The notes below the pieces were generated by a model. It ran no database searches, had not been told where the DNA came from, and saw nothing but the letters and a program-made list of their open reading frames with translations. Shown here one piece after another: positions 4,399 to 21,945 of a DNA stretch of 32,000 nucleotides (position 1 is the stretch's first letter; each line of letters begins with the position of its first letter). The position numbers and the translations under genes were made by a program. This DNA is from Geotalea uraniireducens Rf4 (GTDB taxonomy: Bacteria; Desulfobacterota; Desulfuromonadia; Geobacterales; Geobacteraceae), in assembly GCF_000016745.1 (NCBI RefSeq), contig NC_009483.1:2850001-2882000 (forward strand), given 5' to 3'.

Positions 4399-4670
4399 GC
4401 ATGATTAGTGATAGCAGGTTGGTTGCTGGCATTATACAGGATTAACAGGGGAAATCAACGGGTTAGGGTAAAAAGCGAGAGGGCGAAGTGAATATGATGA
4501 GTGAAGCATTGCACAAATCCATAAATGTCAGAATGTAGGGGTGTAGAACGTAGCTATTTCCCGTGCATACCCCTCCTCTCTGGCATTCAGAAAGGTAAGA
4601 ACGCGCTCGCAGTTGATGGAACCGACAATTTACTCAATCATGAACTCTGATCCTTTATACTTTAATGTAG

Positions 4671-4718
4671 GTCACATGACCTACTTAATAAGTCACATGA
4701 CCTACTTAATAAGTCAAT
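4671..4718. repeat. 21-bp tandem repeat, 2.3 copies (gtcacatgacctacttaataa)
   Basis: Two exact units at 4671-4691 and 4692-4712, plus a partial third. The first unit, with its preceding 'ag', contains the inverted half-sites aggtca-ca-tgacct. Confidence 0.9.
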
Positions 4719-5034
4719 AACTCTTGTAGCAGCGATTGTCAAGAACAGAAATTGAGCATACAAGTGAGGGATGAGGTGTTGTTGATGATCGCCGGGGTGA
4801 TGGTCGTGCCCGGCTGGGGGACCAGTTCCCAGAACGGTTCCCGATCGAAGCGGGAGAAGGGGAAGGCGATACTGCTGGTCTGCATTCATTCTTCGTTTCA
4901 ACTCATCCCTGACCCCGCGCCACTCTGCAACCTCCAAGGACTCGCTACCCGGTGGCTGGCCAACCTTCCGGGGCGGGATTCGCACCCGCTAGATTACGCG
5001 ACCTTGCCCGGCCGCACTGGAAGCCTGACCCCGC

Positions 5035-5163
5035 ACCCAGCTGGGCCATAGGATGATACTGCCCCGCTTCTTTTTTTGCCGAGGAAAGAGGCTGAATGAA
5101 AAGCAAGGGGGGGATTGTCGCGTGGAACCTCCGTGACTACAAAAAGCGGCGATAATCGCAGTT
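5035..5163. repeat. Direct repeat copy 2 (partner at 3424-3506), with about 45 nt of extra internal sequence
   Basis: Same ends as copy 1. The extra block (tactgccccgcttctttttttgccgaggaaagaggctgaatg...) lies between ggatga and aaagc. Confidence 0.9.
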
Positions 5164-5210
5164 TCCAACTCCCTCACCCTGTTCACCAGCAGTTTAACAC
5201 CTCAAATCAA

Positions 5211-6356
5211 CTATCTCAGCGAAGATATTCTACAAGCCACGGCATCCCAATCAATCTCCGTTGTCATATGACACCAGCTGAGGCGGACGCAGGCATTCGC
5301 TTCGTCATCGCTCATACCCATCGCCTTCAACACATGACTTGGTGTATAATTACTCGATGTGCACGCCGAGCCGTTGGAGATCGCAATCAAATCCTTCAGG
5401 GCAACTATCAGGGCTTCAGAATCAAGACCGGGAAAGGCCAGGTTAAGAACATGATCCATCGCCAAGGACTGCTCGCCAGTCAATTTCGGTTCAAGAGGTG
5501 ATAAGGCCTTCAACGCATTTTCCCGCATGCACCGGCAGGCTTCTCTCCGTTTTTCGTTATCACGCACAGCAATCTCGGCTGCCGTTCCAAGGGCAGCTAT
5601 CAGTGCTACCGGCAATGTTCCCGGCCGCAGGCCACGCTCCTGCCCCCCACCATAGACGAGTGGTTGCAGTAGTATGCGCTCATAGCCACGCCTCCGCATG
5701 ACTAAGGCGCCGATTCCCTTTGGTGCATAAATTTTATGTCCGCTGATACTGATGAGATCGATCCGTAGATTACGTAGTAGCTCTAAATCCTTACCAAAAC
5801 CCTGCGCCGCATCGGTGTGGAAGTAGGCAGGATGATTCTTTAGTATTTCGGCAATATCATCCAATGGCTGGCGGATACCGGTTTCATTATTCGTCTGCAT
5901 GACTGAAACCAGCAGTGTATCCGGCCGTAGAGCAGCTTTTATCGCTTCCAGTTCCACCACACCACCAGCGCCAACAGGCACTCGTGTTACTGCAAAACCA
6001 GCCCGTTCAAGGGCATCGCATGGCTCCAGCACGGCCTTGTGTTCAATGGCCGTGGTGATAACGTGTTTCTTCCCCTGCTCCTCTCCCGCAGCCCGTAAAC
6101 CGAGAATTGCAAGGTTGTTGCTCTCCGTCGCGCCGCTGGTAAAAATCACCTCGTCACGCTTGGCTGAAACTACAGCGGCTACCTGATCCCGCGCTTTCTG
6201 CACCGCCTGTTTAGCCCGTGCGCCGAATTCGTGGGTACGGCTCCCCTCATTGCCGAAGTCCTCTGTCAGGTAACGGAGCATTACCTCTCGAACCTCAGCA
6301 TCCAGGGGGGTGGTAGCATTGCAATCCAGATAGATAGTTCCCATAAAATTCCCCAT
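5211..6356 (-). CDS. dndA: Cysteine desulfurase, NifS/IscS-like (DndA)
   Basis: PLP-lysine motif SGHKIYAPKG and active-site Cys loop SNGSACTSS. Divergently adjacent to dndBCDE, the classic dndA arrangement. Confidence 0.85.
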   Translation of the reverse strand: MGNFMGTIYLDCNATTPLDAEVREVMLRYLTEDFGNEGSRTHEFGARAKQAVQKARDQVAAVVSAKRDEVIFTSGATESNNLAILGLRAAGEEQGKKHVITTAIEHKAVLEPCDALERAGFAVTRVPVGAGGVVELEAIKAALRPDTLLVSVMQTNNETGIRQPLDDIAEILKNHPAYFHTDAAQGFGKDLELLRNLRIDLISISGHKIYAPKGIGALVMRRRGYERILLQPLVYGGGQERGLRPGTLPVALIAALGTAAEIAVRDNEKRREACRCMRENALKALSPLEPKLTGEQSLAMDHVLNLAFPGLDSEALIVALKDLIAISNGSACTSSNYTPSHVLKAMGMSDDEANACVRLSWCHMTTEIDWDAVACRISSLR

Positions 6357-6379
6357 GTATGTTAATTTGTTATTTTATA

Positions 6380-6408
6380 TTGACATACAAATCTGATTTC
6401 AGTATAAA
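6380..6408 (+). promoter_or_regulatory. Sigma70-type promoter for dndBCDE
   Basis: TTGACA (6380-6385), 17-nt spacer, TATAAA (6403-6408), about 70 nt upstream of the dndB ATG in the dndA/dndB divergent spacer. Confidence 0.55.
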
Positions 6409-6476
6409 CTACCTGCATACTTTTAACAAACTTTTTTCTTACAACAGTCAAGCTTATCCCCCTATAAGGACGTATA

Positions 6477-7553
6477 ATGGATACGAACTCTACCCTTTCA
6501 TTCCCAGTTATTCGCGGACTACAGGCCCATCGCGAATATTACGTTGCCATGTGGACACTCCGGATGATGAGGCAAATTTCGATATTCAATGAAGATGAAC
6601 TCCCTCCGGAACTACGCGCCCAGCGAATCCTCAACAAGGCGCGCATACCGGAAATCGCCGAGTATATCATCGACAACCCGGATGATTATGTTTTTTCTGC
6701 CCTCACCGTTTCAATCGATTCCGACGTCCTGTTTGAGCCGCTCCCCGGCCAGGATAAACTCGGTCTGCTCCGCGTCCCAATGGATGCCCATTTCATCATC
6801 AACGATGGCCAGCACCGCCGGGCCGCTATTATCGAGGCACTGAAGCAACGACCCGAACTGGAACACGAAACAATCGCCGTAGTCTTTTTCCTAGACATAG
6901 GCCTGGAGCGCTGCCAGCAGATGTTTGCCGACCTCAATCGCTACGCCATCCGTCCGAGCCGCTCGCTGGGCCTGCTGTACGACCACCGCAACGACAAGGC
7001 CCGCTTGGCAAAAATGGTTATCATGAAATCGGAAATCTTCCGTGACCTGGTGGACATGGAGAAATCCTCTCTCGCCCCCCGCGCCCGAAAACTCTTCACA
7101 CTCTCCGCATTTTACAACGCCTGTGCCGATCTTGTTAACGGCTTAGCTACTGGCAATCTGATAGAAGACGCAGATCTTGCCCGCACATTTTGGGAGGAGA
7201 CAGCCAAGCATTTCCCTATGTGGGAGCAAGTGCGCGAGGGGAAACTTCCTGCCAGTGAGGTGAGGGAAGGATTTATCCACTCCCATGGAATTGCGCTCCA
7301 GGCCATCGGCAAGGCGGGAAATGCTCTTCTGCACAGCCATCCAAACGACTGGAAAAAACGACTGAAAGCCCTGGAAAAAATCGATTGGTCGCGCAACAAT
7401 GCCAAGATATGGGAAGGCAGAGCCATAATTGGCGGCAAAGTCTCCAAATCCACCACTAACGTCGTCCTGGCCACAAATGTCATAAAGAAAGCCTTATCGC
7501 TCTCTCTCAGCGAAGAAGAACAGCGAGTCGAAACAGCACACCTCAAAAAGTAA
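6477..7553 (+). CDS. dndB: DndB (DGQHR-domain protein, regulator of PT modification)
   Basis: Exact DGQHR motif (FIINDGQHRRAAI). 358 aa. First gene of the dndBCDE set. Confidence 0.9.
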   Translation: MDTNSTLSFPVIRGLQAHREYYVAMWTLRMMRQISIFNEDELPPELRAQRILNKARIPEIAEYIIDNPDDYVFSALTVSIDSDVLFEPLPGQDKLGLLRVPMDAHFIINDGQHRRAAIIEALKQRPELEHETIAVVFFLDIGLERCQQMFADLNRYAIRPSRSLGLLYDHRNDKARLAKMVIMKSEIFRDLVDMEKSSLAPRARKLFTLSAFYNACADLVNGLATGNLIEDADLARTFWEETAKHFPMWEQVREGKLPASEVREGFIHSHGIALQAIGKAGNALLHSHPNDWKKRLKALEKIDWSRNNAKIWEGRAIIGGKVSKSTTNVVLATNVIKKALSLSLSEEEQRVETAHLKK

Positions 7554-7577
7554 TTCAGAATAAACAGACAGGCACCC

Positions 7578-9233
7578 ATGAAAACAGCAAAAAAGAAAGC
7601 TGGTGTTCCAGCAACAAATGATTCTGTACAACCTGAATGTACGGTAACTGAAACATCTCTTCCCAACACAGACAACTCAAATTCGCCAGCTGCAAAGGTC
7701 CGCAAATCGGCCTTCAATGAACTCGGTTTCCAGGCGACCATCGAGCTGCTTCAGGAAGAAATCCGTAGCCTCTACATTGCCGACGAAATCCCCTGGATCA
7801 TCGGCTATTCCGGCGGCAAGGATTCCACCGCAACCCTCCAACTGGTTTGGACCGCCATCGCAGAACTTCCTGCTGAACAGCGCCGGAAAACGGTCTATGC
7901 AATCTCCACCGACACCATGGTGGAAAATCCGGTCGTAGCTGCATGGGTGGCTAATTCGCTCGCTGTCATGAAGCGAGCTTCTGCCGAGCAACTGGTACCC
8001 ATACAACCTCGCCGCCTGACACCGGCTTTGGTAGATTCTTTCTGGGTCAATTTGATCGGGAAAGGGTATCCTGCCCCTCGACACAAATTCCGCTGGTGCA
8101 CGGCCCGCCTGAAAATTTCACCCTCCAACTCCTTCATCAACAGCATCGTATCTTCAAGTGTCGAAGCCATTCTCGTCCTTGGTACTAGAAAGGCAGAGAG
8201 CTCAGCCCGTGCAGCCAACATGGCTCGACATGAAAAGGGACGAGTCCGGGATCGGCTCAGTCCCAATTCCAGCTTACCTGGCTCACTCGTCTACTCTCCC
8301 ATTGAGGCTTGGACAAACGACGATGTCTGGTTTTATCTCATGCAAGTTAAAAATCCGTGGGGCTACAACAATCGGGATCTGCTTGGCATGTATGCCGGGG
8401 CATCTGCTGATGGCGAGTGTCCGCTCGTCGTAGATGATTCAACGCCGAGTTGCGGTGACTCACGTTTTGGCTGCTGGGTCTGCACCCTGGTGGACAAAGA
8501 CAAGTCCATGACCGCCATGATTCAGAATGACGAAGAAAAAGAATGGATGATGCCACTGCTCGATATCCGCGACGCTCTGGATTTCCGCAGAGACCACAAG
8601 GGCGAATACGCTGAAAATGCTGATTATGACATCCGCGATTTTCGCCGCATGAGCGGTGCCGTCCAAGTGATGTCGGGTGGCCGCCCAATTCCCGGACCCT
8701 ACATTCAGAGCGCTCGGGAAGAATGGCTTAGGAAGTTGCTCATTGCCCAAACCTACATCCGCAAAAACGGCCCACCCGAAGTACAAGGGATAGAACTGAT
8801 AACCCTGGAAGAGTTACAGGAGATCCGTCGTATCTGGGTGGTAGACAAGCACGAACTGGAAGACTCTCTGCCCCGCATTTACCGGGAAGCTACCGGCAAT
8901 GATTACCCAGGCCGCCCACTAGATGACAATCTGGTGATTGGCGAGGAAGAAATGCACGTTCTTGCCGAACTATGCGGAGAAGATCGCCTGCACTATGAGC
9001 TTACGCGCGAACTATTGAGTATAACCCGGCAACAACGGACAACCTCCCGTCGTGCCGGTCTTCATGAGCAACTAGAGAAGACCTTTTCCCGCCATTTTTA
9101 CGACGACAAGCAGGACGCCCTCACCCGCGCCCAGCAGATGGCCGATCAAAAGCAACGTTTGTCCAATAATCGCCAGCAGTTCGTTTCGGTCGTCATGGAA
9201 CCTTTGGCCTGCGATCAGGAGGGCGAAGCATGA
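7578..9233 (+). CDS. dndC: DndC (PAPS-reductase/PP-loop ATP pyrophosphatase family sulfurtransferase)
   Basis: PP-loop SGGKDS (IGYSGGKDSTAT) and Cys cluster CGDSRFGCWVC. 551 aa. Stop overlaps the dndD start (ATGA at 9230-9233). Confidence 0.9.
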   Translation: MKTAKKKAGVPATNDSVQPECTVTETSLPNTDNSNSPAAKVRKSAFNELGFQATIELLQEEIRSLYIADEIPWIIGYSGGKDSTATLQLVWTAIAELPAEQRRKTVYAISTDTMVENPVVAAWVANSLAVMKRASAEQLVPIQPRRLTPALVDSFWVNLIGKGYPAPRHKFRWCTARLKISPSNSFINSIVSSSVEAILVLGTRKAESSARAANMARHEKGRVRDRLSPNSSLPGSLVYSPIEAWTNDDVWFYLMQVKNPWGYNNRDLLGMYAGASADGECPLVVDDSTPSCGDSRFGCWVCTLVDKDKSMTAMIQNDEEKEWMMPLLDIRDALDFRRDHKGEYAENADYDIRDFRRMSGAVQVMSGGRPIPGPYIQSAREEWLRKLLIAQTYIRKNGPPEVQGIELITLEELQEIRRIWVVDKHELEDSLPRIYREATGNDYPGRPLDDNLVIGEEEMHVLAELCGEDRLHYELTRELLSITRQQRTTSRRAGLHEQLEKTFSRHFYDDKQDALTRAQQMADQKQRLSNNRQQFVSVVMEPLACDQEGEA

Positions 9234-11206
9234 TACTGGATACGATCATACTGGAAAACTATGGTGCTTACGGTGGACGGCAGGAAGCTCTCCTTACTCC
9301 TGAAGAGGGGAAGCCTATCATCCTTTTCGGTGGTATGAACGGCGGCGGTAAAACAACCCTGCTCGACGCTATTCAACTGGCCTTCTATGGGCCAAAGGCG
9401 CGTATCTCCAACCGGGGCAAGCTTGGCTATAAGGAGTACCTCCGGGAATCGATCCACCGCGGCGGAGATCCGGGCGAAGGGGCCGGCATCACGGTGCGCT
9501 TCCGCCGGGTCATCGAAGGTAAAAGTAGAAATTTCGAATTACAACGTTGCTGGCGTGAAGGGGTTAAAGGAATCGAGGAAACTGTTAGGGTCCTTCGTGA
9601 TGGCCTCCCCGATGATATATTCACCGAACATTGGGATGAATCCATCGAAGCCTATCTCCCCAGCAGTATCGCCCACCTCTTCTTCTTTGACGGCGAACAG
9701 ATCAAGGAGTTGGCCGAGGGTGGCCACGCTGCTGATATTCTCGGCACAGCCATCCACTCCCTGCTGGGTCTTGATTTGGTTGATCGCCTGGAAAACGATC
9801 TCAAGGTGTTTGAACGGCGCAAGAAAGCCGAAGGACTCGACCCCGAAGCAACAAGGAAGCTAGCAATTGCGCGAAGTGAGTTCGTTGAAATCTTCCGGGA
9901 GGAGGAAAAGGCCGCTTCGTTGTCGGGTGCACTCACCAATGAATCAAACCAACTTGCAAAGGAATTGCATGCTAAAGAAGAATTATTCCGGAAGGAAGGT
10001 GGCGATCTTTTTTTACGGCGCAAAGAGCTGGAAGATGAGCTAGTCGCACTGAAGGCCCGGAAAGCAGCAACAGAGGCGCAATTCCGAGAGCTGATCGCTG
10101 GACCGCTGCCGTTCCTTCTGGTGGAAAACCTGCTTGCCGAAGTGGAGCAGGTCGTTCGTCATGAAACCGAAATAAAGCGTGCTCGGGTATTGTTGGAGGT
10201 ATTGGAAACCCGCGACACTGAGGTGCTGGACTCCCTGAAAGCGGAAAAGATCGGTGGGCAGCTACTTCGCTCCATGGACAGGATTCTGGAAAAAGACCGC
10301 AAAAGCAGGGCCGGACTAGCGAAGAAAACATTAATTCTCGACGCAGATGACACTCTGGCCCCGCAGATAGCCCATTTGCGTGGGACCGTACTCCCGACAG
10401 CCGAACAACAGGCGTGTGACTTCACTGCAAAAATTGCTGCCTTGGACGAGAAAATTGCCCGACTGGAAGGTGAACTGGATCGTGCTCCGACTGCGGAGCG
10501 GATTGCAGAAGTTCAAGAGGTGCTGGAAGCAGCCCGAAAAGCCCATCAGGCTAAACTGGCTGAACTTGAGGCGATAAAGGTGCGCCGCCAGGCGTTACAG
10601 CGGCAACGACTGATGGCGGAAGCCAGGTTAGACAAGATGGGAGAAAATGATGTTAATTCCCAATTCCATGAGGATGGCCGCCTGCGGATGCTTAAACACT
10701 CGCTTCGGGTGCGTGAGACTCTTGGGCGATTCCGCACTAAGATCGTAAAACATCACACTGAGAACATGGAATCGCTGATGCTTGAATCCTTCTGCAAGCT
10801 GCTCCGTAAGAAGGAGTTGGTTAGTGGACTAAAGATAAATCCTGAGACATTCGAGGCCACGCTTGTAACCAAGGATGGGAAGATCCTCCCCTTTGAACGT
10901 CTTTCCGCTGGCGAAAAGCAACTCCTAGCAACGTCACTTCTCTGGGGTCTTGCTCGCGCTTCCGGACGCCCTGTGCCAACAATTATTGACACTCCACTGG
11001 GGCGGCTCGACTCTTCACACCGTAAGCATCTGATAGAACGCTACTTCCCGAATGCCTCCCATCAGGTTCTATTGTTGTCTACAGATGAGGAGATTGTTGG
11101 GACTTATTACAAGGAACTGAAACCCTTCATAACCAGAACCTATCTTCTTGAGCACAACGAGGAGGCGGGGCAAACAAATCTTAAGCAAGGATACTTCAAC
11201 GTATGA
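9230..11206 (+). CDS. dndD: DndD (SMC/ABC-like ATPase)
   Basis: Walker A GGMNGGGKTT, long coiled-coil middle, signature-like LSAGEKQ, Walker B/D-loop TIIDTPLGRLD. ATGA overlaps at both ends. Confidence 0.9.
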   Translation: MILDTIILENYGAYGGRQEALLTPEEGKPIILFGGMNGGGKTTLLDAIQLAFYGPKARISNRGKLGYKEYLRESIHRGGDPGEGAGITVRFRRVIEGKSRNFELQRCWREGVKGIEETVRVLRDGLPDDIFTEHWDESIEAYLPSSIAHLFFFDGEQIKELAEGGHAADILGTAIHSLLGLDLVDRLENDLKVFERRKKAEGLDPEATRKLAIARSEFVEIFREEEKAASLSGALTNESNQLAKELHAKEELFRKEGGDLFLRRKELEDELVALKARKAATEAQFRELIAGPLPFLLVENLLAEVEQVVRHETEIKRARVLLEVLETRDTEVLDSLKAEKIGGQLLRSMDRILEKDRKSRAGLAKKTLILDADDTLAPQIAHLRGTVLPTAEQQACDFTAKIAALDEKIARLEGELDRAPTAERIAEVQEVLEAARKAHQAKLAELEAIKVRRQALQRQRLMAEARLDKMGENDVNSQFHEDGRLRMLKHSLRVRETLGRFRTKIVKHHTENMESLMLESFCKLLRKKELVSGLKINPETFEATLVTKDGKILPFERLSAGEKQLLATSLLWGLARASGRPVPTIIDTPLGRLDSSHRKHLIERYFPNASHQVLLLSTDEEIVGTYYKELKPFITRTYLLEHNEEAGQTNLKQGYFNV

Positions 11207-11601
11207 GACCACCAGTTGAGCATGTGCGAGTTAGCACTAAGGGGAAAGAAATATTAATCAAGATAAAAAGACGTACAGGTCTAGAGCATTGGAACGAAGT
11301 ATGTAGAGTGGCACTTTGCCATTCGCTTTCAAATCCAACATCGCCTCCGAAGCTTGAAAGAGTCAGTGACAGCACAATCGATATTGAATGGAAAACGTTC
11401 GCAGGACAGTATCAAAAAGAATTTGCTGCTATGATCATGCTTAGGAGCAAGCAACATGGCATAAATATAAACGATAGAGAGGAAATAGCTCAATATTTTC
11501 GATCTCACCTAGAGAGAGGAATCGTGTCCTTGCAGACTAGCAAAGATGTTAGCAGCTTGTTCCATTATTCTCAGCATTTTGAGTTGAAAGATAATCCATG
11601 A
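11203..11601 (+). CDS. dndE: DndE
   Basis: 132 aa. N-terminus RVSTKGKEILIKIKRRTGLEHWNEVCRVALCHSL fits the DndE pattern. Translationally coupled to dndD (ATGA at 11203-11206). Confidence 0.8.
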   Translation: MRPPVEHVRVSTKGKEILIKIKRRTGLEHWNEVCRVALCHSLSNPTSPPKLERVSDSTIDIEWKTFAGQYQKEFAAMIMLRSKQHGININDREEIAQYFRSHLERGIVSLQTSKDVSSLFHYSQHFELKDNP

Positions 11602-11995
11602 TTTGTTCGTAAACTTTTACAGCCAATTCATCTCCCCATGAGTACCTGCACCTAGCAGGTGCAGTTCTAGTAGTATCTGAAATTATTTTTTCAATAGGTG
11701 CCAATCGAGGGAGATTAAGAATGCACTTTTCATGAACTCTGTGTTCAATATATTGAGTGACTATTTTATGTTCATCCTGAGATAACTTTGCGATTTCTTT
11801 ACAGTCTATACAAAGAAATACTATCTCCTCATCCATTGCCCATAAATCTTGATCAGCTTCCTTTAATCTCTTTGTGAAACTTCCAATCTCTTGTAAATGC
11901 TGCCCCCATCTAGATACAGGATGTTGCTGTGTCTCTCCAATATAAATGCAGTAGCTTTTTATAATCGCATAGATGTAAGGATGATGCGACTTACC
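11549..11995 (-). pseudogene. GIY-YIG nuclease-family gene, 3' portion; the 5' 11 codons lie at 13404-13436 on the far side of the IS
   Basis: YIYAIIKSYCIYIGET supplies the GIY...YIG motifs. The track ORF begins with a TTG inside the IS terminal repeat. Deleting 11996-13409 restores ATG ATT CGT TTT GCT GGA GCT ATA AGG GGT AAG | TCG CAT... in frame. Confidence 0.75.
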
Positions 11996-13403
11996 TGTCA
12001 AATGTCAGGACATCGGTTACCCAAGCCTAACTCTAAAAAGTGTCAGGACATCGGTTACCCGACCCCCTGATTATGCATACTATTTCATGAGCTGAACTCT
12101 GTAGGCATTCTGTACTCAAAGCTTTGAACAAAGTCTTCACCCAGGTACACTTGCAGCGTGTGAATTTCCGTTACGATCATGGCTCGCACATATGAATAGA
12201 CGAGGTCTTTTGAAACCTCAAATTTTTCGCCAAAGATGTTAAGTGTTCTATCGCTCCTGATAAATCTAATGAGCGAAATGGTGCCGTCCGGGAGAAAATC
12301 AAGTTTTGGCATCCTGGTATTTGGCCCCAGCGTCAAGGGCTTGAATTTGTCAGCTTCAATAACCTCCAGTGGCGTTTTCCCCTTGAGATAGCTGTAACGG
12401 TGATTCTTGTTGTGAAACTGCTGGAAATTCTTGCTTTGCCGCTTGAGCATGGAATAGCTTGTGAACCACTGGCGGCGAAAAAACTTTTTGTCATAGGTAT
12501 CGTTGAAGCTCTCTATTACGCCATCGCGCCACGGTTCCGCAACAGGGATAAAAACAGGATGAACGCCGAAGTAGAGACATAGTCGCAGCACCAGACCAAG
12601 TGACCTCGGATAGCGGTTACTGCCACGGAAACTGAGTTCATTGTCCATTTGCAGGAAGTCGGGAAGCCCCATTGACTTCCAGCAGCGCAGCAAACCCTGT
12701 GCAATGTTGTCATCCTCCTTGGTGCGATTTGATTCGATGAAGACCCGATGGCTGTACAGATCAATCACATTCATCGAGTAAAATCTGCCGTCACTCTTGA
12801 TGTAGCGGGGGCCAACAAGATCCATCTGATGGATGTTGTTGCAGCACAGGGCTTCGGTAAAGTACGGGTACTCGACCCCTTTGGGGGAATATCTCGTTTT
12901 TTTTAACGAGTCCTTCCCGCTTCAGGGTCCGGTTAATGGTGCTGTCAGAGCGAAACGGTAACCCCAGCTTATGCAGCTCCCACTTGATAGCGGAAACGCC
13001 AATCTGTGCAAATGGTGACGAGTCCAGGCGGTTTCTGGTGGAGACAATAATCTCCTTATCTACGATGCTGAGTTCAGACGGTCTTTTAAGTGGCGCTCTT
13101 GAGTGTTCCTTGTACCAGTCAGTCGCGCCAGATTGATACCGGTTCAACCACTTAAAAAACCACTTCTTGGAGCGATCAAGGCTTGTATAGACTGCCTTGG
13201 GTGATTCGCCTGCAAGATGGCGCTGGACTGCTTGTTTCCTGAGTTCTTCTTCCATGCGGATGTTCTCCCCTCAAGTTGAAATCACAGAGAACATTGTAGC
13301 TGATATTTCTAATGAAGGTAACCGATGTCTTGACACAAAAAAGGGCGTTAAGGGTAACCGATGTCTTGACACATCCGGGTAACCGATGTCCTGACACTTG
13401 TCA
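11996..13403 (-). mobile_element. IS element (1408 bp), rve/DDE transposase, IS481-like or IS3-superfamily
   Basis: Terminal inverted repeats tgtcaaatgtcaggacatcggttaccc (left) and gggtaaccgatgtcctgacacttgtca (right). Direct 6-bp duplication CTTACC at 11990-11995 and 13404-13409. The about 20-bp IR core is reiterated subterminally (12003, 12040; 13317, 13352, 13377). Confidence 0.85.
12085..13255 (-). CDS. Transposase, HTH N-terminal part plus DDE integrase core, split into two frames at an A8 run
   Basis: ORF 12791-13255 carries the HTH part and ORF 12085-12825 the rve core (HQMD...LQMDNE...GVIESFN). The downstream frame stays open back to the A8 run (plus-strand T8 at 12897-12904), giving ...KKTRYSPKGVEYPYFTEALCCNNIHQMDLVGPRYI. 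Confidence 0.7.
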
Positions 13404-13432
13404 CTTACCCCTTATAGCTCCAGCAAAACGAA

Positions 13433-15133
13433 TCATATTTTAATATTCCCAAAAATATGCTGATTGCCAGTTGCCCAGGCGCTTATGTTAAATGAAAGAA
13501 CGGAATAATATCGTTCAAATACTTTTCTAATACTATCTTCTGGCACCAAAGTTAAATTCTCGTAAGTTTTATTTTCACCAATTGCGCAGCAGAAAATAAC
13601 AGCTTCAAGCGCAAGTCTTTCTGGAGAAGACTCATCCAAATTTCCGAGAACAGATTGATAGAACGCATGTCTCCTGTTGATAATTACATAAGTTCCTTGT
13701 ACAGCGTCTTTCTGAGTACTCCACAGATTAATACCTGGAAGGTTGTCACTGTAACGTATCTTCACAAAATCACTCTCTTCAGTTGTAGAGGTCTCTTCTT
13801 CAGGCTCCTCAGGCTTAATTTTATCAAGAGTCTCCTTAGATTCTTCTTCTCGTTTCTTAGCTCTTTCCTTCCTCTCTGCTGGATCTGGTGGTGTAAGATC
13901 CTCGATAGGATCCTCTTCTGGGACCGAATCAACAGTATTTGTGAAGCCAGCACCCTCCCCATTCCCCTTTCGAAGAAGATCCTTACATACAGCAAAAACT
14001 TGAGCAGCTTGTTTTCGCGGCAATCGCATGAGGAGATCTAGATTATTCCTGGTTTCGTCATCCATTTCTAGACGCTGTTTTGACACATCAACATGTAAAA
14101 GGTCATCGTGTTCTGTTAATAATTCCATACGAGCACGAAACCCTATTAAATCTTTTGGCACCAAGTTGTCAAGATCATCTCCCCAACGAATAAGCCGACC
14201 GTTTCTATAAATAAAAAATCCTTTATTCTCCCGTGATACTCGGTATGTTCTAATACGCGCCCTATCATCCTCACCAAGAGGAGACGAAGAAGCCCCCATA
14301 GTATCCTGTGGAAATGTCACAACCTCTAGTTTTATTGGTGGTGCCCCCTCTTCTCCTAAAGCAGGAATATTCCACTCTCCTTTGAAGGCGAAACACGGTT
14401 TTTTCGCATCATATGATGTAGGATCGAAACCAGGATCAGAATCATGTGTAAACAATATATCGAAAGGCTTAATATCTAGACCTTCTTCCCCAGGGTATAT
14501 TAACTTAATATTTAAGCGCGAACCCTCCGATGCAGATAAAAATGAATAGTAAGTTACTCCTAGACGATGTTTGAGTTTCTCTATAGTAGTCTTTGCCGAG
14601 GTATGGTAAATAGAGCCACAACCTGATATTTCAACGATAGTTCCTGAAGAATTAGGCAACAGAGAAGTAATTTCTTCTTTTTCAATTGCTGTTAAGTCTT
14701 CACAACAGACAACATATTCGTTTCTTGCTTCAATCACTTTTCTGTCTAAAAAATACTTTCGCGTTAGCTGACCTTCTGTTTTACTGATGATTTGAATTCG
14801 AAGTCCCAAAGAAAACCCAGCAGACTTTAATCCCATCCCATACTTAGACAGACTGTTCTGCTTGTAGTTAGCATCTGAGCCAAGCTTGAAAGCGTTTTTT
14901 ATTCCATCCTCATCCATGCCCTTCCCATCATCAACAACACGATACCTCGCGACATTATTCCTCTGATTTATCGTTTTTCCTTCAACCAAGTCAACGTAGA
15001 GCTTTACATTTAAAGCATCGGCGGCAACAGAGTTATCAATAATATCCATTAGTGCTGAATGTGGCTCATAGCCTATTCTCGCTATTGCATCGCAAACACG
15101 AACAGCATTCATTGAGATAGGAATTGTTTCCAT
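13433..15133 (-). CDS. GHKL-superfamily ATPase (HATPase_c_3 / MORC-like), 566 aa
   Basis: Bergerat-fold motifs: N-box MDIIDNSVAADA, DDGKGMDEDG, SKYGMGLKSAGF. Acidic low-complexity linker (EEDPIEDL...EEPEEETSTTEESD). AGGAGA RBS 7 nt upstream of the ATG. Confidence 0.75.
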   Translation of the reverse strand: METIPISMNAVRVCDAIARIGYEPHSALMDIIDNSVAADALNVKLYVDLVEGKTINQRNNVARYRVVDDGKGMDEDGIKNAFKLGSDANYKQNSLSKYGMGLKSAGFSLGLRIQIISKTEGQLTRKYFLDRKVIEARNEYVVCCEDLTAIEKEEITSLLPNSSGTIVEISGCGSIYHTSAKTTIEKLKHRLGVTYYSFLSASEGSRLNIKLIYPGEEGLDIKPFDILFTHDSDPGFDPTSYDAKKPCFAFKGEWNIPALGEEGAPPIKLEVVTFPQDTMGASSSPLGEDDRARIRTYRVSRENKGFFIYRNGRLIRWGDDLDNLVPKDLIGFRARMELLTEHDDLLHVDVSKQRLEMDDETRNNLDLLMRLPRKQAAQVFAVCKDLLRKGNGEGAGFTNTVDSVPEEDPIEDLTPPDPAERKERAKKREEESKETLDKIKPEEPEEETSTTEESDFVKIRYSDNLPGINLWSTQKDAVQGTYVIINRRHAFYQSVLGNLDESSPERLALEAVIFCCAIGENKTYENLTLVPEDSIRKVFERYYSVLSFNISAWATGNQHIFGNIKI

Positions 15134-15151
15134 AAATTTTCTCCTCTAAAT

Positions 15152-15877
15152 TCAAATAGTGAGTTCTAAATCCAACCGCCCTGCGCTTTCTTCTTTCTGT
15201 GTTTCAATAAACGCAAGCAAGCCATCCAGATCGAGCGGACGACCAGTAAAGAAGTCCCTCAAAATCTCAAGCCCTCCATTCGCATACTCCTGAAATACGG
15301 AAACCCTATCGTCCTCCGCTTCCGCAGAACCCGAGAGACAATTGGAGTTTTGGGTTTCAGCCAGTGTCATAAGGTAGAGCACACCCGGCCAGGCTGGACA
15401 GTTGCCAAAGGTACTTTGATCAATTCCTTTGCCTGCATCAACAGCCTTCAGCGGCAATCGCTTATCATTCCTCATCCCTACCTGAGCGGCAAAAAGGAGA
15501 AGCTTCCATATTTCCTTGAAAACACCGACTTGATCGGACATCAGGGTCTTGATGATTTCCTCTTTATCATTTGCCCGTTGAATTCGTTTCATACCGGAAC
15601 CCGCCCTTTTCCTTGCAGTTGTTCGTATGCCAGAACTCAAATCATAAACATCATCACTCACCATTTCGAACAACACCTCGTCTGAAGAATCCACACGTTC
15701 AACGTTTCCAGTCTGCCTGCGAATTGTAGTCCGCAGTACATGCTCAGGTGTTGGTGTATTGAACTCGTAAAGCTTTCTTCGCACGATTTCAGCGTAAATC
15801 TCATCAATGGACGCTGCTCTGCCCAGAGCACGCAGCACCTTCTGCGCTACTTCGGCGATAGTGTCTTTGGTGTTCAT
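15152..15877 (-). CDS. HARE-HTH/Mrr_N-like winged-helix protein with an uncharacterised C-terminal domain (possibly a Dnd-associated family)
   Basis: The N-terminus VAQKVLRALGRAASIDEIYAEIVRRKLYEFNTPTPEHVLRTTIRR...LFEMVSDDVYDL fits the HARE-HTH pattern. I could not place the C-terminal half. ATGA overlap with the upstream gene at 15874-15877. Confidence 0.5.
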   Translation of the reverse strand: MNTKDTIAEVAQKVLRALGRAASIDEIYAEIVRRKLYEFNTPTPEHVLRTTIRRQTGNVERVDSSDEVLFEMVSDDVYDLSSGIRTTARKRAGSGMKRIQRANDKEEIIKTLMSDQVGVFKEIWKLLLFAAQVGMRNDKRLPLKAVDAGKGIDQSTFGNCPAWPGVLYLMTLAETQNSNCLSGSAEAEDDRVSVFQEYANGGLEILRDFFTGRPLDLDGLLAFIETQKEESAGRLDLELTI

Positions 15878-17973
15878 AGCGGCACGATCTCCGTATATTC
15901 ATCAGTTTCCAGCGGGAAATACTGCTGAATTTTTTGTCCCTCAACTATGAGTTCCGGTGCTGCCTTCTCCGGCATTGTCGGGCCATAGTAGGTAAGGTAG
16001 TAACGCTTGCCAATGCGCCCGGAAGAAGAAAGCACTGCCTCGACTTCACCGTCGTACTGTTTCGGGCTGACAAAGAGAACTACCTGCGGCGCAAGCTCGG
16101 GAATGTATTTCGCAACACCCTCACGGAAGATGCTTAAGGAGCCAAAGGGAGAATCTATTGCAATTGGAAAGGTTGACCCAGCCAGATCCCTGAGTATGGT
16201 TGGAATTTCCGATCGTCGCTTCGCCAGGGCAACAAGACTGGCTATAAAGACAAGCGAAGTTACGGTTCGTTCCCCGGTACTTAACGCTGCATCGATCTCC
16301 ACCGGGTCGGCACCGCCATCGCCTCCAGCAACTCTCTTGCGAATCCGCAGGGTGAAGTTATCTGTCAACTCCGCCCAATAATCCTTGGTCATTATCTTGC
16401 GGAAATGACTGTCGATTTCCGCATTGAGAAGTGGCCGAAGGTCTTCGGTTTCAGCTTTCAAGATTTGCGTAAGGATATTGATGCAGTCCTCAACTGCGTC
16501 TACCCGGCGTTGTGCACGGGCTGCGGCTTCTTCTTTGTCTGCAATCTGACGAATTTGCGCTTCCAACGTTTCTATTTCGACTGTTGCAGCTTTGATCTGA
16601 CCGTCTATTCGTCCAAGGGCTGCGTTCTGCCCATCGCGATCAAGATGCAAAGACTTAAACTTCTCCTCAAGCTGATTAACCTCTTCATCCTTTTTACCTC
16701 CGAGAGCCTGATGAATCTCCTCAAGTTCTTCGTCACGCTCACGGATGTCGCGGGAAAGCTCAAGACGCTCCAGCTTCAACTGATTTAGCAGTTCCTGAGT
16801 CTGACCGCCAACCCCTTCTATGACTCCGATTGCGTGATCAAGAGCACCCACAGCGTTATTGAAGTCCTGATCTCCAGCTATGGTCAGGAGATTTTCAACG
16901 GCAGCACGCTCAGGAGAACCTTCTGCAAGGCTCCGGGTGCAGATGCATTTGCTATGCTCCAGCAGCTCCTGTAAAAAGGTGTTCAATACTCGCGCAGGAA
17001 TTTTCCCCTCGCTACGGAGTTGAGCGATGATTTCGCAGCCACGATTAATCAATTTGGAAGTTAGAAGAGTGTAGCCGTCATCTGATATAAGCTTAGACAG
17101 GCGTTTCGTTACCTCGTCACGCTTACCAGCCAATTCCTCTCTCTCGCGTGTAAGATGAATACGCTTGGATTGAAGCTCGTGCGCCACGCGATTGGCAGCC
17201 AACTTATCATTTACTGACGCAAGTTCTGCGTTAATAGCTTTCAAGTTAGCAAGCGTCTGATCTTGTTGGCCGATATACTCCTTTATCAGCTCTTCTTGTC
17301 TTGAGAGTTGTTCAATCAATTCCCTCTTCTCTTCACTTGTTGTCTCTTTTTGCTCAGTACGAAGTTTGCCGCGGACATTCTGGTGACGAAGGTCATCGAT
17401 TGTAATCTTTAGTAAATCAAGGCCTAGCATCTGGTGTATGGCATCGGTTACCTGGGAGCTGTTGCGCTCCATGGCCAAGTAGTTAATGCGTTCACCATTG
17501 AAAAAAAGGAATCGGCTGATGCCATCAGGGATGAGTGCTTGAATGCGCTGTTGCGGTCGATCAAGAGAGAAAGTCTGCCCGTTTCTCATCACTTCAAGCG
17601 ATAGCGTTGTCTGCCTCGGGTTCAGATTTTGTTGTGCCAATGAAAGCTGGCGAGTCAGTACATAGCGATCCGCATCGTGTTTGAAGGTTATCTGCACAGA
17701 AGCCGTGAGAGCCAGTGGATCTTTAGCGCGGAGAGCGAGACCTTCATGAATAATCCGATCAGGACGTTCGAAGTCGTCGGGGTTACCGTCAATGCCCATT
17801 AAACCATCACGACCGTAGAAGCACCAGACTAAAGCTTTGAGCAGGGTGGTCTTCCCAAAGCCGTTTTCTGCATGGACAACCGTTACGTTACGTTCGCGGA
17901 GATCTGAGAAGACGAGCTCCTGGCGCCCCTTGAACTGTCGAAAATTCTCCAGTATGAGCCGCTCTAATATCAT
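15874..17973 (-). CDS. DndD-like SMC/ABC ATPase (paralogue of the dndD in this window)
   Basis: MILERLILENFRQFKGRQE...ENGFGKTTLLKALVWCFYG parallels DndD MILDTIILENYGAYGGRQE...GGGKTTLLDAIQLAFYG. Also LFFNGERI vs FFFDGEQI, LSTGERT vs LSAGEKQ, and IAIDSPFGSLS vs IIDTPLGRLD. Long coiled-coil middle. Confidence 0.8.
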   Translation of the reverse strand: MILERLILENFRQFKGRQELVFSDLRERNVTVVHAENGFGKTTLLKALVWCFYGRDGLMGIDGNPDDFERPDRIIHEGLALRAKDPLALTASVQITFKHDADRYVLTRQLSLAQQNLNPRQTTLSLEVMRNGQTFSLDRPQQRIQALIPDGISRFLFFNGERINYLAMERNSSQVTDAIHQMLGLDLLKITIDDLRHQNVRGKLRTEQKETTSEEKRELIEQLSRQEELIKEYIGQQDQTLANLKAINAELASVNDKLAANRVAHELQSKRIHLTREREELAGKRDEVTKRLSKLISDDGYTLLTSKLINRGCEIIAQLRSEGKIPARVLNTFLQELLEHSKCICTRSLAEGSPERAAVENLLTIAGDQDFNNAVGALDHAIGVIEGVGGQTQELLNQLKLERLELSRDIRERDEELEEIHQALGGKKDEEVNQLEEKFKSLHLDRDGQNAALGRIDGQIKAATVEIETLEAQIRQIADKEEAAARAQRRVDAVEDCINILTQILKAETEDLRPLLNAEIDSHFRKIMTKDYWAELTDNFTLRIRKRVAGGDGGADPVEIDAALSTGERTVTSLVFIASLVALAKRRSEIPTILRDLAGSTFPIAIDSPFGSLSIFREGVAKYIPELAPQVVLFVSPKQYDGEVEAVLSSSGRIGKRYYLTYYGPTMPEKAAPELIVEGQKIQQYFPLETDEYTEIVPL

Positions 17974-18158
17974 TTGATCACCCGTTTTACATGCTCAAAG
18001 AGTCGCTGATGAATATCACTGCGCCGCTTCAGGTGCATCACGTCGCGCTCTTCTTTCAGAATATCTCTGATGAGCGTCTGGTATTCAGGAGATGCGGCTT
18101 TAAAGATTTCCTGGGCGCGTGTCAGTTTTTTTGATTGTTCAGGCAGCTGATCTGTCAT
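17970..18158 (-). CDS. Small (62 aa) helical protein of unknown function
   Basis: Sits 6 nt after the PLD-helicase stop and overlaps the DndD-like gene start by ATGA (17970-17973). No motif recognised. Support is positional only. Confidence 0.5.
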   Translation of the reverse strand: MTDQLPEQSKKLTRAQEIFKAASPEYQTLIRDILKEERDVMHLKRRSDIHQRLFEHVKRVIK

Positions 18159-18164: not shown

Positions 18165-20285
18165 TTACTCCGATAACAAGTTATATTTCAGGCGCAAATC
18201 ATGTAATGAATGCAATGCCTCTGGGCCGTTTTCGGCCATCCGGCAAAACTCCACAATCCTGCTCAATTCCCTCTGGAAAAACGATCGTTCCATATTAAAC
18301 CCATCATCATCAAGACTGCCACCAAGATCAGGCGGTTGCACAATAAAGTCGTAGATGATCGCCCGATTCTTCCCCGGCGAATTCCTCAGCAGCCGACCAC
18401 GGCGCTGTACAAACTGTCGCGGATTGGTAGAGCTGGCAAGCAGGAACCCCATCCGCAAATCCGGCAAGTCAATTCCCTCATCCAGACACCGTATCGCTAC
18501 GACACCATCCAGAAAGCCGCTCGTCAGGTCGCGCAGGATTTCTTCCCGCTCTTCAGTGCTCTCCCGAAAAGTGAAATTCCGCACCCGGAGACCATGTCTT
18601 TCACCCAACAGCCGAGAAACAGCCTGAATCTGGCGAACTTCTTCATCGGTAATGGCATCAGTCGTTCGCCCGTCGCCACAATAGAAGATGGCTTTTTTCG
18701 GCGGCTCAGGTAGCGAAGCAATGACCCGATCCAGGGCAGCGAGTTTATTCTCCGCGCCGGCAAGAAGCCGCGCCCTCTTGATAAGAAGCCGCATGGCCAC
18801 CTGCTGCATTTCACTGTCGTCATCCCCTTTGGAGAAAAACTTTGCCAGCTTGGTAGTTATCTCTTCATAGGCATCGGTTTCGGTCTCGGTCAGCTCTACG
18901 GGAATCGGGTAGTAACGATACCGGCAAAGGCGACCGTCGGCAATAGCCGATGATAGAGGATATTCATAAACGATATTTCCGAAATAGTCCAGCACTGCCG
19001 ACGTGCCAACCGGGTCGTAGTGACGTTCCGGGGTAGCAGAGAGCCCCAGACGCAGGGCAATTCCATCCGGCAGAGCCTCCCGAATCCGTTCTGCCCCCAG
19101 GTTATGGACCTCATCGGCAATCAGGAGATGATGGACTGCCAACGTCGCCACTCGTGGGCGAATGCGCGCCTGGAAACTCTCGCTTTGAAACGTTGCGTTG
19201 GTGGCAACAATGGCATGTACCTGCGACAGTCCGACTGAAAGCCTTTGATACCCCTCCTCCAGCTCTGCCTGCCACCGATCTTTCCCCTCAAAGCAGGCAA
19301 CCGGCTGCAGTCCGAAAGCCGCCATCTCTCGCAGCCACTGTCGGCAGAGATTGATAAACGGACAAACCACGATAAGGACAAGCGGACGATTCTTTTCCGC
19401 AACCTTGCTGGCCAGGGTGAGCGCGGTCAACGTCTTCCCGGAACCGGTGGCCATGGCAAAAATCCCCTTGCCTCCCGCCTTGCTCCAGGCACGAATGGCG
19501 TCAGCCTGGTAGGGACGAAGTTCAAAGCTCTTGGGTGGGATGAATTCCGTGTGCAGTCCAGGCTCTTTTACCCGGTCGAGCGATAAGCCCGCTGGTGGCT
19601 TGTCCAGATCACGGAAGCGCTCCAGCAGTTCTTTACCGGCTTCACTGAATTCCATGATCCGCAGCCCCGGTGTCGAGTCGTTCCAGAGCGCTTCAAAGTT
19701 CTCCACTTCTTCTTGTACCCGGCCTTCCTGATCGCGCCACGAACAGAAAACCTTGATGCTTTCGAAGTTCTCCACCAACCCGCCAGCTGTCTCGTTGGAC
19801 GAACCGGAAAATGCCACGAGGTTCCCGTCTCGATCGGTGAAAATGCCCGTTTTCTCATGGAAAATACCACGGGAAAATCCACCCCGAGCATCCAGCCGTA
19901 GAGCAAGCTTGATCTCCAGCAGACCGGCAGCAGCAAGCCACGCCAGGGCGTTGAGCCGATCCTTGATCAAGGCATCTTCAATACCAGCAAGACTCCGGGC
20001 AGCTATTGCGCGTAAAGCATCAGCAGGATTACTGGCCGCCGCCTGGAGCGCCTCCACATCCGCCGGTTCCAGATAGGGTGAAACTACCAACTTCATCTTT
20101 CCTCGCCGGGACGCGAGACTGGCCACCCCACTTGCCGCCAATGCAAGACCGGCACTGGTAAAATATCCCGCCGCCCGGCGATAGAGGACAGACGACTCCA
20201 GACACGGGATAAAGAAATCCCTTACCAGATCATCACGCCCGGTGCGGTAGGAAAGGTTGATTGTTATGTCAGAAAGATTGGGCAA
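18165..20285 (-). CDS. PLD-family nuclease domain fused to an SF2 (ResIII/DEAH) helicase
   Basis: HKD motif FHEKTGIFTDRDGNLVAFSGSSNET. Helicase motif I MATGSGKT, II LIADEVHNL, III LGLSATP, VI QRRGRLLR. Apparent TTG start. Confidence 0.85.
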   Translation of the reverse strand: MPNLSDITINLSYRTGRDDLVRDFFIPCLESSVLYRRAAGYFTSAGLALAASGVASLASRRGKMKLVVSPYLEPADVEALQAAASNPADALRAIAARSLAGIEDALIKDRLNALAWLAAAGLLEIKLALRLDARGGFSRGIFHEKTGIFTDRDGNLVAFSGSSNETAGGLVENFESIKVFCSWRDQEGRVQEEVENFEALWNDSTPGLRIMEFSEAGKELLERFRDLDKPPAGLSLDRVKEPGLHTEFIPPKSFELRPYQADAIRAWSKAGGKGIFAMATGSGKTLTALTLASKVAEKNRPLVLIVVCPFINLCRQWLREMAAFGLQPVACFEGKDRWQAELEEGYQRLSVGLSQVHAIVATNATFQSESFQARIRPRVATLAVHHLLIADEVHNLGAERIREALPDGIALRLGLSATPERHYDPVGTSAVLDYFGNIVYEYPLSSAIADGRLCRYRYYPIPVELTETETDAYEEITTKLAKFFSKGDDDSEMQQVAMRLLIKRARLLAGAENKLAALDRVIASLPEPPKKAIFYCGDGRTTDAITDEEVRQIQAVSRLLGERHGLRVRNFTFRESTEEREEILRDLTSGFLDGVVAIRCLDEGIDLPDLRMGFLLASSTNPRQFVQRRGRLLRNSPGKNRAIIYDFIVQPPDLGGSLDDDGFNMERSFFQRELSRIVEFCRMAENGPEALHSLHDLRLKYNLLSE

Positions 20286-20515: not shown

Positions 20516-20740
20516 CAAAAAAGCCGCCAATCAGCATATCCCTGACCAGCGGCTTTTATCTACACGCAGTGCATCTATTCCACTTTCTATCACTCATCCC
20601 AAAAAACTCCACATAACACAATAAAATGAGCCTTCTATTTACACCCCGGATGCACTCGCTGTCAACCTTTAGCTATGTATTTTCTAACACACTCTTCTTC
20701 CCCATTAACCAGACACGACTCCACCCTCCCCCACCCGACA
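20516..20740. repeat. Direct repeat copy A (partner 21342-21737)
   Basis: Begins with a bidirectional terminator-like hairpin aaaaagccgcc...gcggctttt. It then shares tacacgcagtgcatctattcc...ctccacataacacaataaaatgagccttctatttacacc...gtcaacctttagcta...ccagacacgactccaccctcccccacccgaca with copy B. Confidence 0.85.
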
Positions 20741-20879: not shown

Positions 20880-21296
20880 TCATCGGAAGCCTGCCTTACA
20901 TTCGGCAAGATACGACCCAATCACTGGGACATCAGCCTCAGCCCAGTCGAGGGTATGGAGTTTCTCCGGAGGCAGCCAGACGATGGCAGCGTGCTCGTGA
21001 AGCACGATCACGCCCGAATTAATAGAGCAGACAAACGGATGGAGCGTAACAGCGAAGGTCGGGTAATGGTGCATGCTGGTCGGCAAGCTCTTACCGATGA
21101 TCACGTGAATGCCCATCTCTTCAACCAGTTCGCGCCGCAGGCACTCTTCCGGCGTTTCACCGGGGTCGATCTTGCCTCCGGGAAACTCCCACTTGAGCGG
21201 CAGGCTCATGGCGGCGCTCCGTTGGGCGGCCAGAACGAGACCGTCCTGTTCGATGATAGCGCAGGTGACATTAATGTGTATTGCTTTTGCAGACAT
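20880..21296 (-). CDS. NUDIX hydrolase (MutT-like)
   Basis: Nudix box GGKIDPGETPEECLRRELVEEMGI. 138 aa. Confidence 0.85.
   Translation of the reverse strand: MSAKAIHINVTCAIIEQDGLVLAAQRSAAMSLPLKWEFPGGKIDPGETPEECLRRELVEEMGIHVIIGKSLPTSMHHYPTFAVTLHPFVCSINSGVIVLHEHAAIVWLPPEKLHTLDWAEADVPVIGSYLAECKAGFR

Positions 21297-21870: not shown

Positions 21871-21945
<75 letters not shown>

Follow-up and report, generated by a model that had tools for sequence, protein, structure and literature searches.

The question raised by this locus is to which of its neighbours, if to any, a pair of genes predicted to encode a GHKL (MORC-like) ATPase and a small GIY-YIG nuclease belongs. The pair is found in Geotalea uraniireducens Rf4, in a stretch of 32,000 nucleotides (contig NC_009483.1, positions 2,850,001 to 2,882,000; hereafter the window, whose first letter is position 1), between the dnd genes, which write phosphorothioate (PT) marks into DNA, and the genes of the PT-dependent system PbeABCD. 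A first reading, made from the sequence only, had taken the pair for a separately acquired two-gene module grafted onto the end of the pbe operon, and had proposed that it was either an independent defence pair or an effector added on to the PT-linked system. The comparison of related loci reported below shows that the pair is a discrete, translationally coupled and horizontally exchanged ATPase-nuclease cassette, the sole constant neighbour of which is a PT writer. Its parts in the window are the following.

15141-15145, minus strand: AGGAG ribosome-binding site, 8 nucleotides upstream of the GHKL ATG
13433-15133, minus strand: GHKL (MORC-like) ATPase gene, 566 residues, intact (Pfam HATPase_c_3, E 1e-34)
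13403-13436, minus strand: GIY-YIG nuclease gene, 5' fragment, codons 1-11 (MIRFAGAIRGK), placed by alignment to the intact gene of the related locus L001
11549-11988, minus strand: GIY-YIG nuclease gene, 3' part with all catalytic motifs (Pfam GIY-YIG)

That the pair is real, as the sequence-only reading held, is confirmed by Pfam matches to both genes, and NCBI holds a Geotalea uraniireducens protein to which the ATPase of the window shows 100% identity. The ATGA overlap that had been pointed out between the two genes is exact, with the nuclease ATG at 13436-13434 and the GHKL stop TGA at 13435-13433. Coupling to the upstream HARE-HTH gene (pbeD) through a ribosome-binding site was also recovered as described, AGGAG being placed at 15145-15141, 8 nucleotides before the GHKL ATG.

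Twenty-one homologues of the ATPase were aligned, and one genome per species was scanned with two GHKL peptide patterns, a procedure which is unbiased toward dnd. Pattern scan and targeted contig look-ups together produced 35 loci, 36-91% identical to the window, which span Pseudomonadota, Acidobacteriota, Planctomycetota, Campylobacterota and Bacteroidota. The survey covers the locus neighbourhoods of these 35 Dnd-linked loci, and of three Ssp-linked contexts (four loci), and is a sample rather than a census. A small GIY-YIG gene directly follows the ATPase gene in all 35 loci. Where the start could be placed, the junction between the two is a 4- or 8-nucleotide overlap, or a gap of 2-5 nucleotides, and the ATGA or 8-nucleotide overlap recurs in most related loci. 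The dnd modification genes were likewise found beside the pair in 35 loci out of 35, usually within tens of nucleotides. Most commonly, dndB-C-D-E converge on GIY-GHKL; the layout of Bacteroidota is dndC-D-E-GHKL-GIY, all in one direction, and in L039 the pair is on the dndA side.

Other neighbours come and go. Of the 35 loci, only 4 have PbeABCD next to the pair; three of these (L001, L015 and L036) share the layout of the window, and the fourth (L037) has the pair between pbeA and pbeB. The pair directly follows a HARE-HTH+Mrr nuclease, Pbe being absent, in L006, L014 and L028. It follows dndF-dndG-dndH after a gap of 1-13 nucleotides, and abuts dndE, in L009, L018 and L021 (in L009, where the arrangement was recorded at 2026-9999, dndFGH are separate genes upstream of the pair). 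In many loci (L002, L005, L007, L010, L011 and others) it is the only nuclease candidate beside dndBCDE; in P. aeruginosa (L002; GCA_047916295.1, JBLRIN010000002.1:516313-538043), for instance, it stands solitary there, with no other nuclease partner nearby. PADLOC gave no Pbe match for either protein of the pair, and no close homologue was found in PLSDB plasmids, phage genomes or E. coli genomes.

The module formed by dnd and the pair often adjoins conjugation genes (TrbI/CagX/VirB8/TrbL, TraF/G/H, TrwB/TrwC) or phage tail genes, as seen at L002 17385-21731, L037 1-3257, L039 18420-21749 and in L038. Given such neighbours, it may ride on integrative conjugative elements or prophages. In two Bacteroidota loci (L025 4240-5790 and L029 8401-9987), a DndE fused to a HerA/FtsK-type ATPase, 516-528 residues long and resembling the C-terminus of DndH, is encoded directly upstream of the GHKL gene.

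The identities of the pair proteins were next set against those of DndC in 31 loci. Discordance with DndC was observed in many locus pairs, for both the ATPase and the nuclease. DndC is 90% identical between L006 and L018, whose ATPases are 34% identical, and the corresponding values for L016 and L017 are 84% and 41%. The opposite case was also encountered: the ATPase of L013 is 67-69% identical to those of L010, L011 and L014, for DndC identities of about 47% (69% versus 47% with L010), and L018 and L027 share 63% identity in the ATPase and 37% in DndC. Comparison of the window with L015 gave 72-81% identity for the Pbe and Dnd proteins, 61% for DndE, 42% for GHKL and 40% for GIY-YIG, whereas in L036, which is as distant as L015, the ATPase is 70% and the nuclease 71% identical to the window. 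As both GHKL and GIY-YIG are discordant with DndC, we conclude that the pair has been swapped as a unit between dnd backbones. It has an evolutionary history of its own, and to call it a separate two-gene module was correct.

An exhaustive profile-free search brought the ATPase family to about 108 clusters (50% identity) at E ≤ 1e-30. Full-length distant relatives, 27-33% identical, were examined in three contexts, where they lie directly downstream of ssp genes. In L042 and L043, sspB-sspC-sspD immediately precede the ATPase gene (PADLOC SspB/SspC/SspD, E < 1e-80), and in L040/L041 a degraded ssp cluster, consisting of sspB, an sspC remnant and sspD, is present. The small open reading frame (ORF) after the ATPase gene matches the profile of the GIY-YIG partner in L040/L041 and in L043 (hmmsearch, E 4e-10 and 1e-7); in L042, a GIY-YIG motif is recognisable in the following ORF by eye only. 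These Ssp-linked relatives mean that the cassette goes with Dnd and with Ssp, the two known families of PT writers, which share the chemistry of the mark and little else.

The neighbours of the pair in the window are listed below; for dndA to dndD, the assignment rests on an NCBIfam equivalog score above cut-off.

5211-6356, minus strand, divergent from dndB-E: dndA
6477-7553, plus strand: dndB
7578-9233, plus strand: dndC
9230-11206, plus strand: dndD
11203-11601, plus strand: dndE, assigned by homology to the Pfam DndE genes of related loci
18165-20285, minus strand: pbeA, PLD/HKD nuclease and SF2 helicase fusion (PADLOC PbeA, E 2e-235; TIGR04095)
17970-18158, minus strand: pbeB, 62 residues
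15874-17973, minus strand: pbeC, DndD-like ABC ATPase (PADLOC PbeC, E 6e-132)
15152-15877, minus strand: pbeD, N-terminal HARE-HTH and dnd_assoc_4 (DndE-like) domain (TIGR04062)

Both TIGR04095 and TIGR04062, from NCBIfam, score above their cut-offs in the pbe genes. The minus-strand operon thus comprises six genes, pbeABCD followed by GHKL and GIY-YIG, and converges on dndE, the 3' end of which is overlapped by the last 53 nucleotides of the nuclease gene (11549-11601). Between the pbeD stop (15154-15152) and the GHKL ATG (15133) lies a gap of 18 nucleotides, in which a terminator scan gave no convincing terminator; promoter and terminator scans produced matches at chance level, among them a hybrid promoter-like site at 12008-11981 that straddles one end of the insertion sequence described below and the target sequence next to it. 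The Geotalea cassette is probably co-transcribed with pbeABCD.

Some further features of these neighbours and of the island edges were recorded. The HARE-HTH extension of PbeD is N-terminal, about 95 residues long, and has a Pfam E of 4e-4, below cut-off; a 146-residue ORF called as PbeD in L015, whose start is provisional, is without it. A tRNA-Cys gene (21871-21945, minus strand) adjoins a duplicated segment (20517-20740 and 21345-21737; three repeat blocks, about 200 nucleotides in total, 92-100% identical), which brackets a Nudix gene (20880-21296) just past the pbeA start. This duplication may represent att-like scars at one edge of the dnd-pbe island. Just outside dndA, a perfect direct repeat of 56 nucleotides (3451-3506 and 5108-5163) flanks a 1.6-kb segment of small ORFs, and may delimit the island on its other side or frame a small module inserted there. 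Lastly, tandem repeats with a period of 132 nucleotides (223-1016, about six copies, 73-86% identical) within a large ORF (7-1848) point to a repeat-domain protein.

Base composition was then computed. The sequence-only reading had judged the pair AT-rich by eye, and this is borne out: the G+C content (GC) is 0.400 for GHKL and 0.366 for GIY-YIG, against 0.52-0.53 for dndA-D, 0.55 for pbeA, 0.50 for pbeC and 0.48 for pbeD. At third codon positions (GC3), values are 0.31 (z -4.0) and 0.29 (z -4.3) for the two genes, for a mean of 0.58 and a standard deviation of 0.07 in the 20 other genes of the window. Unlike dndA-D, dndE is equally AT-rich (GC 0.40, GC3 0.37, z -3.5), so that the AT-rich block, at about 11100-15200, includes it; the insertion sequence lying in the middle of the block is not AT-rich (GC 0.47-0.50). 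In related loci across phyla, GC of the GHKL gene is below that of DndC in 32 of 33 cases, with a mean difference of -0.07 and a drop of 0.10-0.22 in GC-richer hosts, and dndE is also below DndC in most of them. Low GC is therefore a trait of the whole cassette family and not of Geotalea alone. As the dip is seen in 32 of 33 loci, and extends over dndE, we reject AT-richness as the mark of a recent acquisition in Geotalea. It fits a chronic horizontal turnover, and dates no event in this organism.

What becomes, then, of the proposed graft? Uniform composition, together with a pair always found with the four upstream genes, would have spoken for an integral part of the operon. Composition is not uniform and the pair is mostly without these four genes, which are pbeABCD, and the graft reading therefore survives; a pair forming part of Pbe is rejected on the survey. 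Its place at the end of the operon holds for the window, L001, L015 and L036, and fails in L037. The pair is indeed an add-on, as suggested, but attached to the Dnd or Ssp modification module and not to Pbe. As for the independent defence pair, this suggestion is not supported, the pair being never found away from PT writers in the loci sampled.

The predicted ATPase was examined in more depth. The match to PF13589 (HATPase_c_3) places it in the GHKL (Bergerat-fold) superfamily, and the ATP-binding residues N34 (N-box), D68/G70/G72 (G1 box, DxGxG), G99/G101 (G2 box, the Gly-rich lid) and T165 (motif IV) are invariant in the 21 family members. A transducer-type Lys, K352, is also invariant, within S-K352-Q-R; its structural position is deduced. 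An AlphaFold2 model was obtained with a mean predicted local distance difference test score (pLDDT) of 83. Its best Foldseek matches in the PDB are MORC2, MORC3, MORC4 and SMCHD1 (E 3e-15 to 2e-12, over 420-480 alignment columns), followed by Hsp90 (E to about 1e-11, about 700-740 columns). The structural alignment covers both the GHKL and the transducer domains, that is, the GHKL + S5 module of MORC proteins. At the sequence level, similarity to MORC2/MORC4 in the PDB is weak (E 3.5e-5) and does not reach beyond residues 25-127. The C-terminus (455-566) is a further conserved domain, about 110 residues long, which is peculiar to the family and has no Pfam match. As modelled, the protein thus consists of a Bergerat domain that binds ATP, a transducer of the S5 type and this C-terminal domain. 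Invariant as well are R12, C14 and Y22 of the N-terminal strap; these residues and the C-terminal domain are candidate sites for any sulfur-binding pocket. The label MORC-like, which the sequence-only reading had applied, holds at the level of the predicted fold, where it is justified; strict membership is not established, and the protein should not be called a MORC.

Several known proteins were considered as identities for the pair and set aside. MzaB is one, as NCBIfam NF041932 gave 64.5 bits for a cut-off of 850, and the PADLOC MzaB match is partial (E 1.8e-15). VcSduA/paraMORC3 (Shedu type I-D) is another: no DUF4263 match was obtained, and the nuclease is here a separate GIY-YIG protein. 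DndI, considered on account of the position after dndH, is ruled out, as it consists of DUF262 and HNH, neither of which is detected by Pfam in the pair. Homology to SspFGH was also dismissed, SspF having a Walker A motif and SspH being FtsK-like; PADLOC gave no DndF/G/H or SspF/G/H match for the pair proteins.

For the nuclease, the ORF fragment 11549-12001 matches Pfam PF01541 (GIY-YIG) with an E of 2.2e-6 and 28.3 bits, for a gathering cut-off of 22.6. The motifs Y-x-I, [LI]Y[IF]GET, R-W-x2-H and E-x3-H are conserved across the 35 partner sequences, that of the window included, and the structure model has a pLDDT of 83.5. In the Geotalea nuclease, once restored as described below, the Tyr, Tyr-x-Gly, Arg-x3-His and Glu needed for catalysis are all in place.

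In the window, the nuclease ORF, which starts at 13436, is interrupted after codon 11 by an insertion sequence (IS).

11996-13402, minus strand: insertion sequence, about 1407 nucleotides, with a two-ORF transposase, terminal repeats and a target-site duplication
12791-13255, minus strand: IS orfA, HTH_23, 154 residues
12085-12825, minus strand: IS orfB, rve_3/rve, 246 residues
13403-13409 and 11989-11995: target-site duplication GGTAAGT, 7 bp, two copies flanking the IS

The empty target site is visible by alignment with the uninterrupted relative L001, which is 91% identical. Joining both parts of the gene restores an in-frame protein of 157 residues, the frame resuming after the IS and ending at 11549. 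The 20-nucleotide terminal repeat of the IS, TGTCAGGACATCGGTTACCC or a close variant of it, is present in three copies at one end and two at the other, with a 13-nucleotide core, GACATCGGTTACC. A run of eight A at 12898-12905, in the transposase, may serve for programmed frameshifting. In public reads (Logan run SRR9436596), this two-ORF IS forms a contig of its own, 1408 nucleotides long, which suggests that the IS is multicopy and active, and that the insertion is recent. All the dnd genes and pbeABCD are intact despite the broken nuclease gene. The Geotalea copy of the cassette is probably inactive, judging from its sequence, because the IS leaves the nuclease with neither its start codon nor its translational coupling.

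What might an intact cassette do? The reading we favour, and hold to be somewhat probable, is that of a PT-dependent effector which serves PT writers and is composed of a MORC-like ATPase switch and a nickase. A dimer of the ATPase would bind or clamp DNA, and its ATP cycle would sense the presence or absence of PT marks; thus made PT-responsive, it would license the partner nuclease to nick DNA devoid of the host PT pattern, self DNA being spared. We infer this mechanism of PT sensing. The exclusive linkage to two unrelated PT-writing systems makes PT more easily read as the signal. In Geotalea, the cassette would have been placed behind pbeD, and the IS would later have split the nuclease gene. 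A broader proposal, to which we give slightly less than an even chance, is that the pair represents an unnamed family of PT-reading restriction effectors for both Dnd (double-strand PT) and Ssp (single-strand PT), with a nickase licensed as in MutL/MutH, and the first MORC-like ATPase to read a backbone modification.

Several points weigh against a PT-dependent effector. ATPase competence is unproven, because an invariant Asp (D30) replaces the catalytic Glu usually found at this site in GHKL ATPases. The top match of the nuclease model in a Foldseek search of the PDB is Slx1, a GIY-YIG nuclease, and is non-significant (E 0.34). The direction of the PT-dependence is purely inferred: the nuclease may target DNA without PT, may be switched on by PT, or may be suicidal. 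The IS-disrupted copy makes the phenotype of Geotalea uninformative on the function of the cassette. Literature searches found no paper joining a GHKL/MORC/HATPase ATPase to phosphorothioate, dnd or ssp. Finally, URI nucleases at dnd boundaries are seen by Krishnan et al. (2024) as stand-alone backup suicide effectors.

This last view, extended to the pair, is the strongest rival. The GIY-YIG protein would cut DNA indiscriminately, as in abortive infection, once a phage blocks or overwhelms Dnd, Ssp or Pbe, and GHKL would act as trigger or guard, PT being unread. In its favour stand the proposal of Krishnan et al. (2024), made for URI nucleases that flank dnd loci and are sometimes encoded on the opposite strand, and the fact that the pair often lies beside a restriction module (DndFGH, Pbe, HARE-HTH-Mrr), as a second layer would. 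We nevertheless consider it unlikely: in many loci the pair is the sole nuclease candidate beside dndBCDE, the tight and exclusive linkage to two unrelated PT writers is better explained by PT-reading, and the nuclease, stand-alone in the published proposal, is here always coupled to an ATPase. A nickase-ATPase might also be an accessory of PT modification or maintenance, which prepares or repairs sites, or removes or turns over PT, with no role in defence. Nicking can belong to PT writing, as the Ssp writer includes a nickase, SspB, and this precedent is in line with such an accessory; so is the strict adjacency of the pair to dndE or sspD of the writer, the ends of the genes often overlapping. 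However, dndBCDE of Salmonella and sspBCD of Vibrio or E. coli write without the pair, most dnd loci have no such pair, it moves between dnd alleles, its low GC is typical of mobile defence cargo, and its disruption by the IS is tolerated in Geotalea with all dnd genes intact. An accessory function is improbable for these reasons.

The two remaining rivals are disfavoured by the survey. GHKL and GIY-YIG could be integral fifth and sixth subunits of Pbe in the Geotalea lineage, required for its function; they are co-directional with Pbe, coupled by a ribosome-binding site with no convincing terminator between, and the arrangement is kept in L001 and L036, the pair being even inside the pbe operon in L037. 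Yet characterised PbeABCD needs its four genes only, 31 of the 35 pair loci are without Pbe, L015 has seen its cassette replaced by a 42%-identical allele while Pbe was conserved, and pbeABCD remains intact in Geotalea next to the broken nuclease gene, which together render this explanation very improbable. Least probable of all, by a little, is an independent restriction-type pair merely sharing a defence island with dnd. Prokaryotic MORC/paraMORC ATPases do join nucleases in many restriction-modification (RM)-like operons, and defence genes do cluster, but coincidence sits badly with dnd adjacency in 35 loci out of 35 across Proteobacteria, Acidobacteria, Planctomycetes, Campylobacterota and Bacteroidota, with the Ssp adjacency of the distant branch, and with the lack of close homologues in PLSDB plasmids, phage genomes and E. 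coli genomes.

No restriction partner is known for about half of the dnd clusters in bacteria, nor for about 84% of the sspBCD clusters, and the authors of studies on dnd/ssp partners ask whether other restriction counterparts exist. The pair could be the missing partner for some of these orphan dndBCDE or sspBCD clusters. An exchangeable ATPase-nuclease cassette found on both kinds of PT writers offers a concrete candidate for that role, and one open to testing, and Geotalea carries it together with dndABCDE and pbeABCD, its nuclease gene being knocked out by the IS. If the PT-dependent reading is right, prokaryotic MORC-like ATPases gain a defined epigenetic input, which would be relevant to eukaryotic MORCs as well, and to the way they link ATP-driven clamping of DNA to chromatin marks.

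PbeABCD, DndI, SspE and SspFGH have already been published; a PT-linked ATPase-nuclease module is probably undescribed in the literature that we found. On dnd and GIY-YIG, only a one-line mention of URI nucleases was retrieved: Krishnan, Burroughs, Iyer and Aravind (NAR 2024) note in one sentence that URI (GIY-YIG) nucleases border Dnd modification loci. The main text of that paper does not mention GHKL, MORC, MutL or HATPase, and neither the obligate GHKL partner, nor the Ssp-linked branch, nor the exchange of the cassette is found in it. PbeABCD (Xiong et al. 2019) is, like the pair, found beside dnd, and is its immediate upstream operon in the window; the pair is however absent from characterised PbeABCD systems, and its position relative to Pbe varies. 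A GHKL + S5 ATPase with a nuclease in a defence setting is also what the prokaryotic MORC/paraMORC RM operons of Iyer, Abhiman and Aravind (2008) and VcSduA (GHKL-Shedu/paraMORC3) have in common with the pair. For MORC/paraMORC operons, the proposed role is that of an ATP-driven switch, or of DNA looping, controlling cleavage. Unlike the pair, the operons of Iyer et al. (2008) are linked to SF2 helicases, methylases, or REase/HNH/TIR/DUF4263 domains, and neither a connection to dnd or ssp nor a GIY-YIG partner is mentioned in that study.

The logic of the cassette would resemble that of the MutL-MutH system, in which a GHKL ATPase (MutL) activates a separate small endonuclease (MutH), directed by an epigenetic mark. 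This is an analogy only, since MutH is a PD-(D/E)xK enzyme reading GATC methylation, whereas the pair has a GIY-YIG nuclease and its presumed mark is the backbone sulfur.

The closest functional parallels are PT systems themselves. DndI, SspE and DndFGH all pair an NTPase with a nickase, PT being the mark of self, and the cassette, split over two chains and without homology to them, would correspond to DndI and SspE, which are PT sensors with NTPase and nickase in a single chain, and would also be a parallel to DndFGH. DndI (Salmonella; DUF262 NTPase with a DUF1524/HNH nickase) and SspE are likewise add-on NTPase and nickase modules of PT writers, and like the pair they either coexist with DndFGH or occur without it. 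Homology is lacking: no DUF262 or HNH is found in the pair, which is made of two polypeptides, a GHKL/MORC-type ATPase and a GIY-YIG protein, of predicted function only. The genomic coupling to the PT writer is nonetheless of the same type, as dnd is present in 35 loci out of 35 and sspBCD in L042 and L043, in degraded form in L040/L041. The slot of DndI between dndH and dndE in Salmonella is even that of the pair in L009, L018 and L021. DndI goes with dnd and SspE with ssp, and the cassette family spans both contexts.

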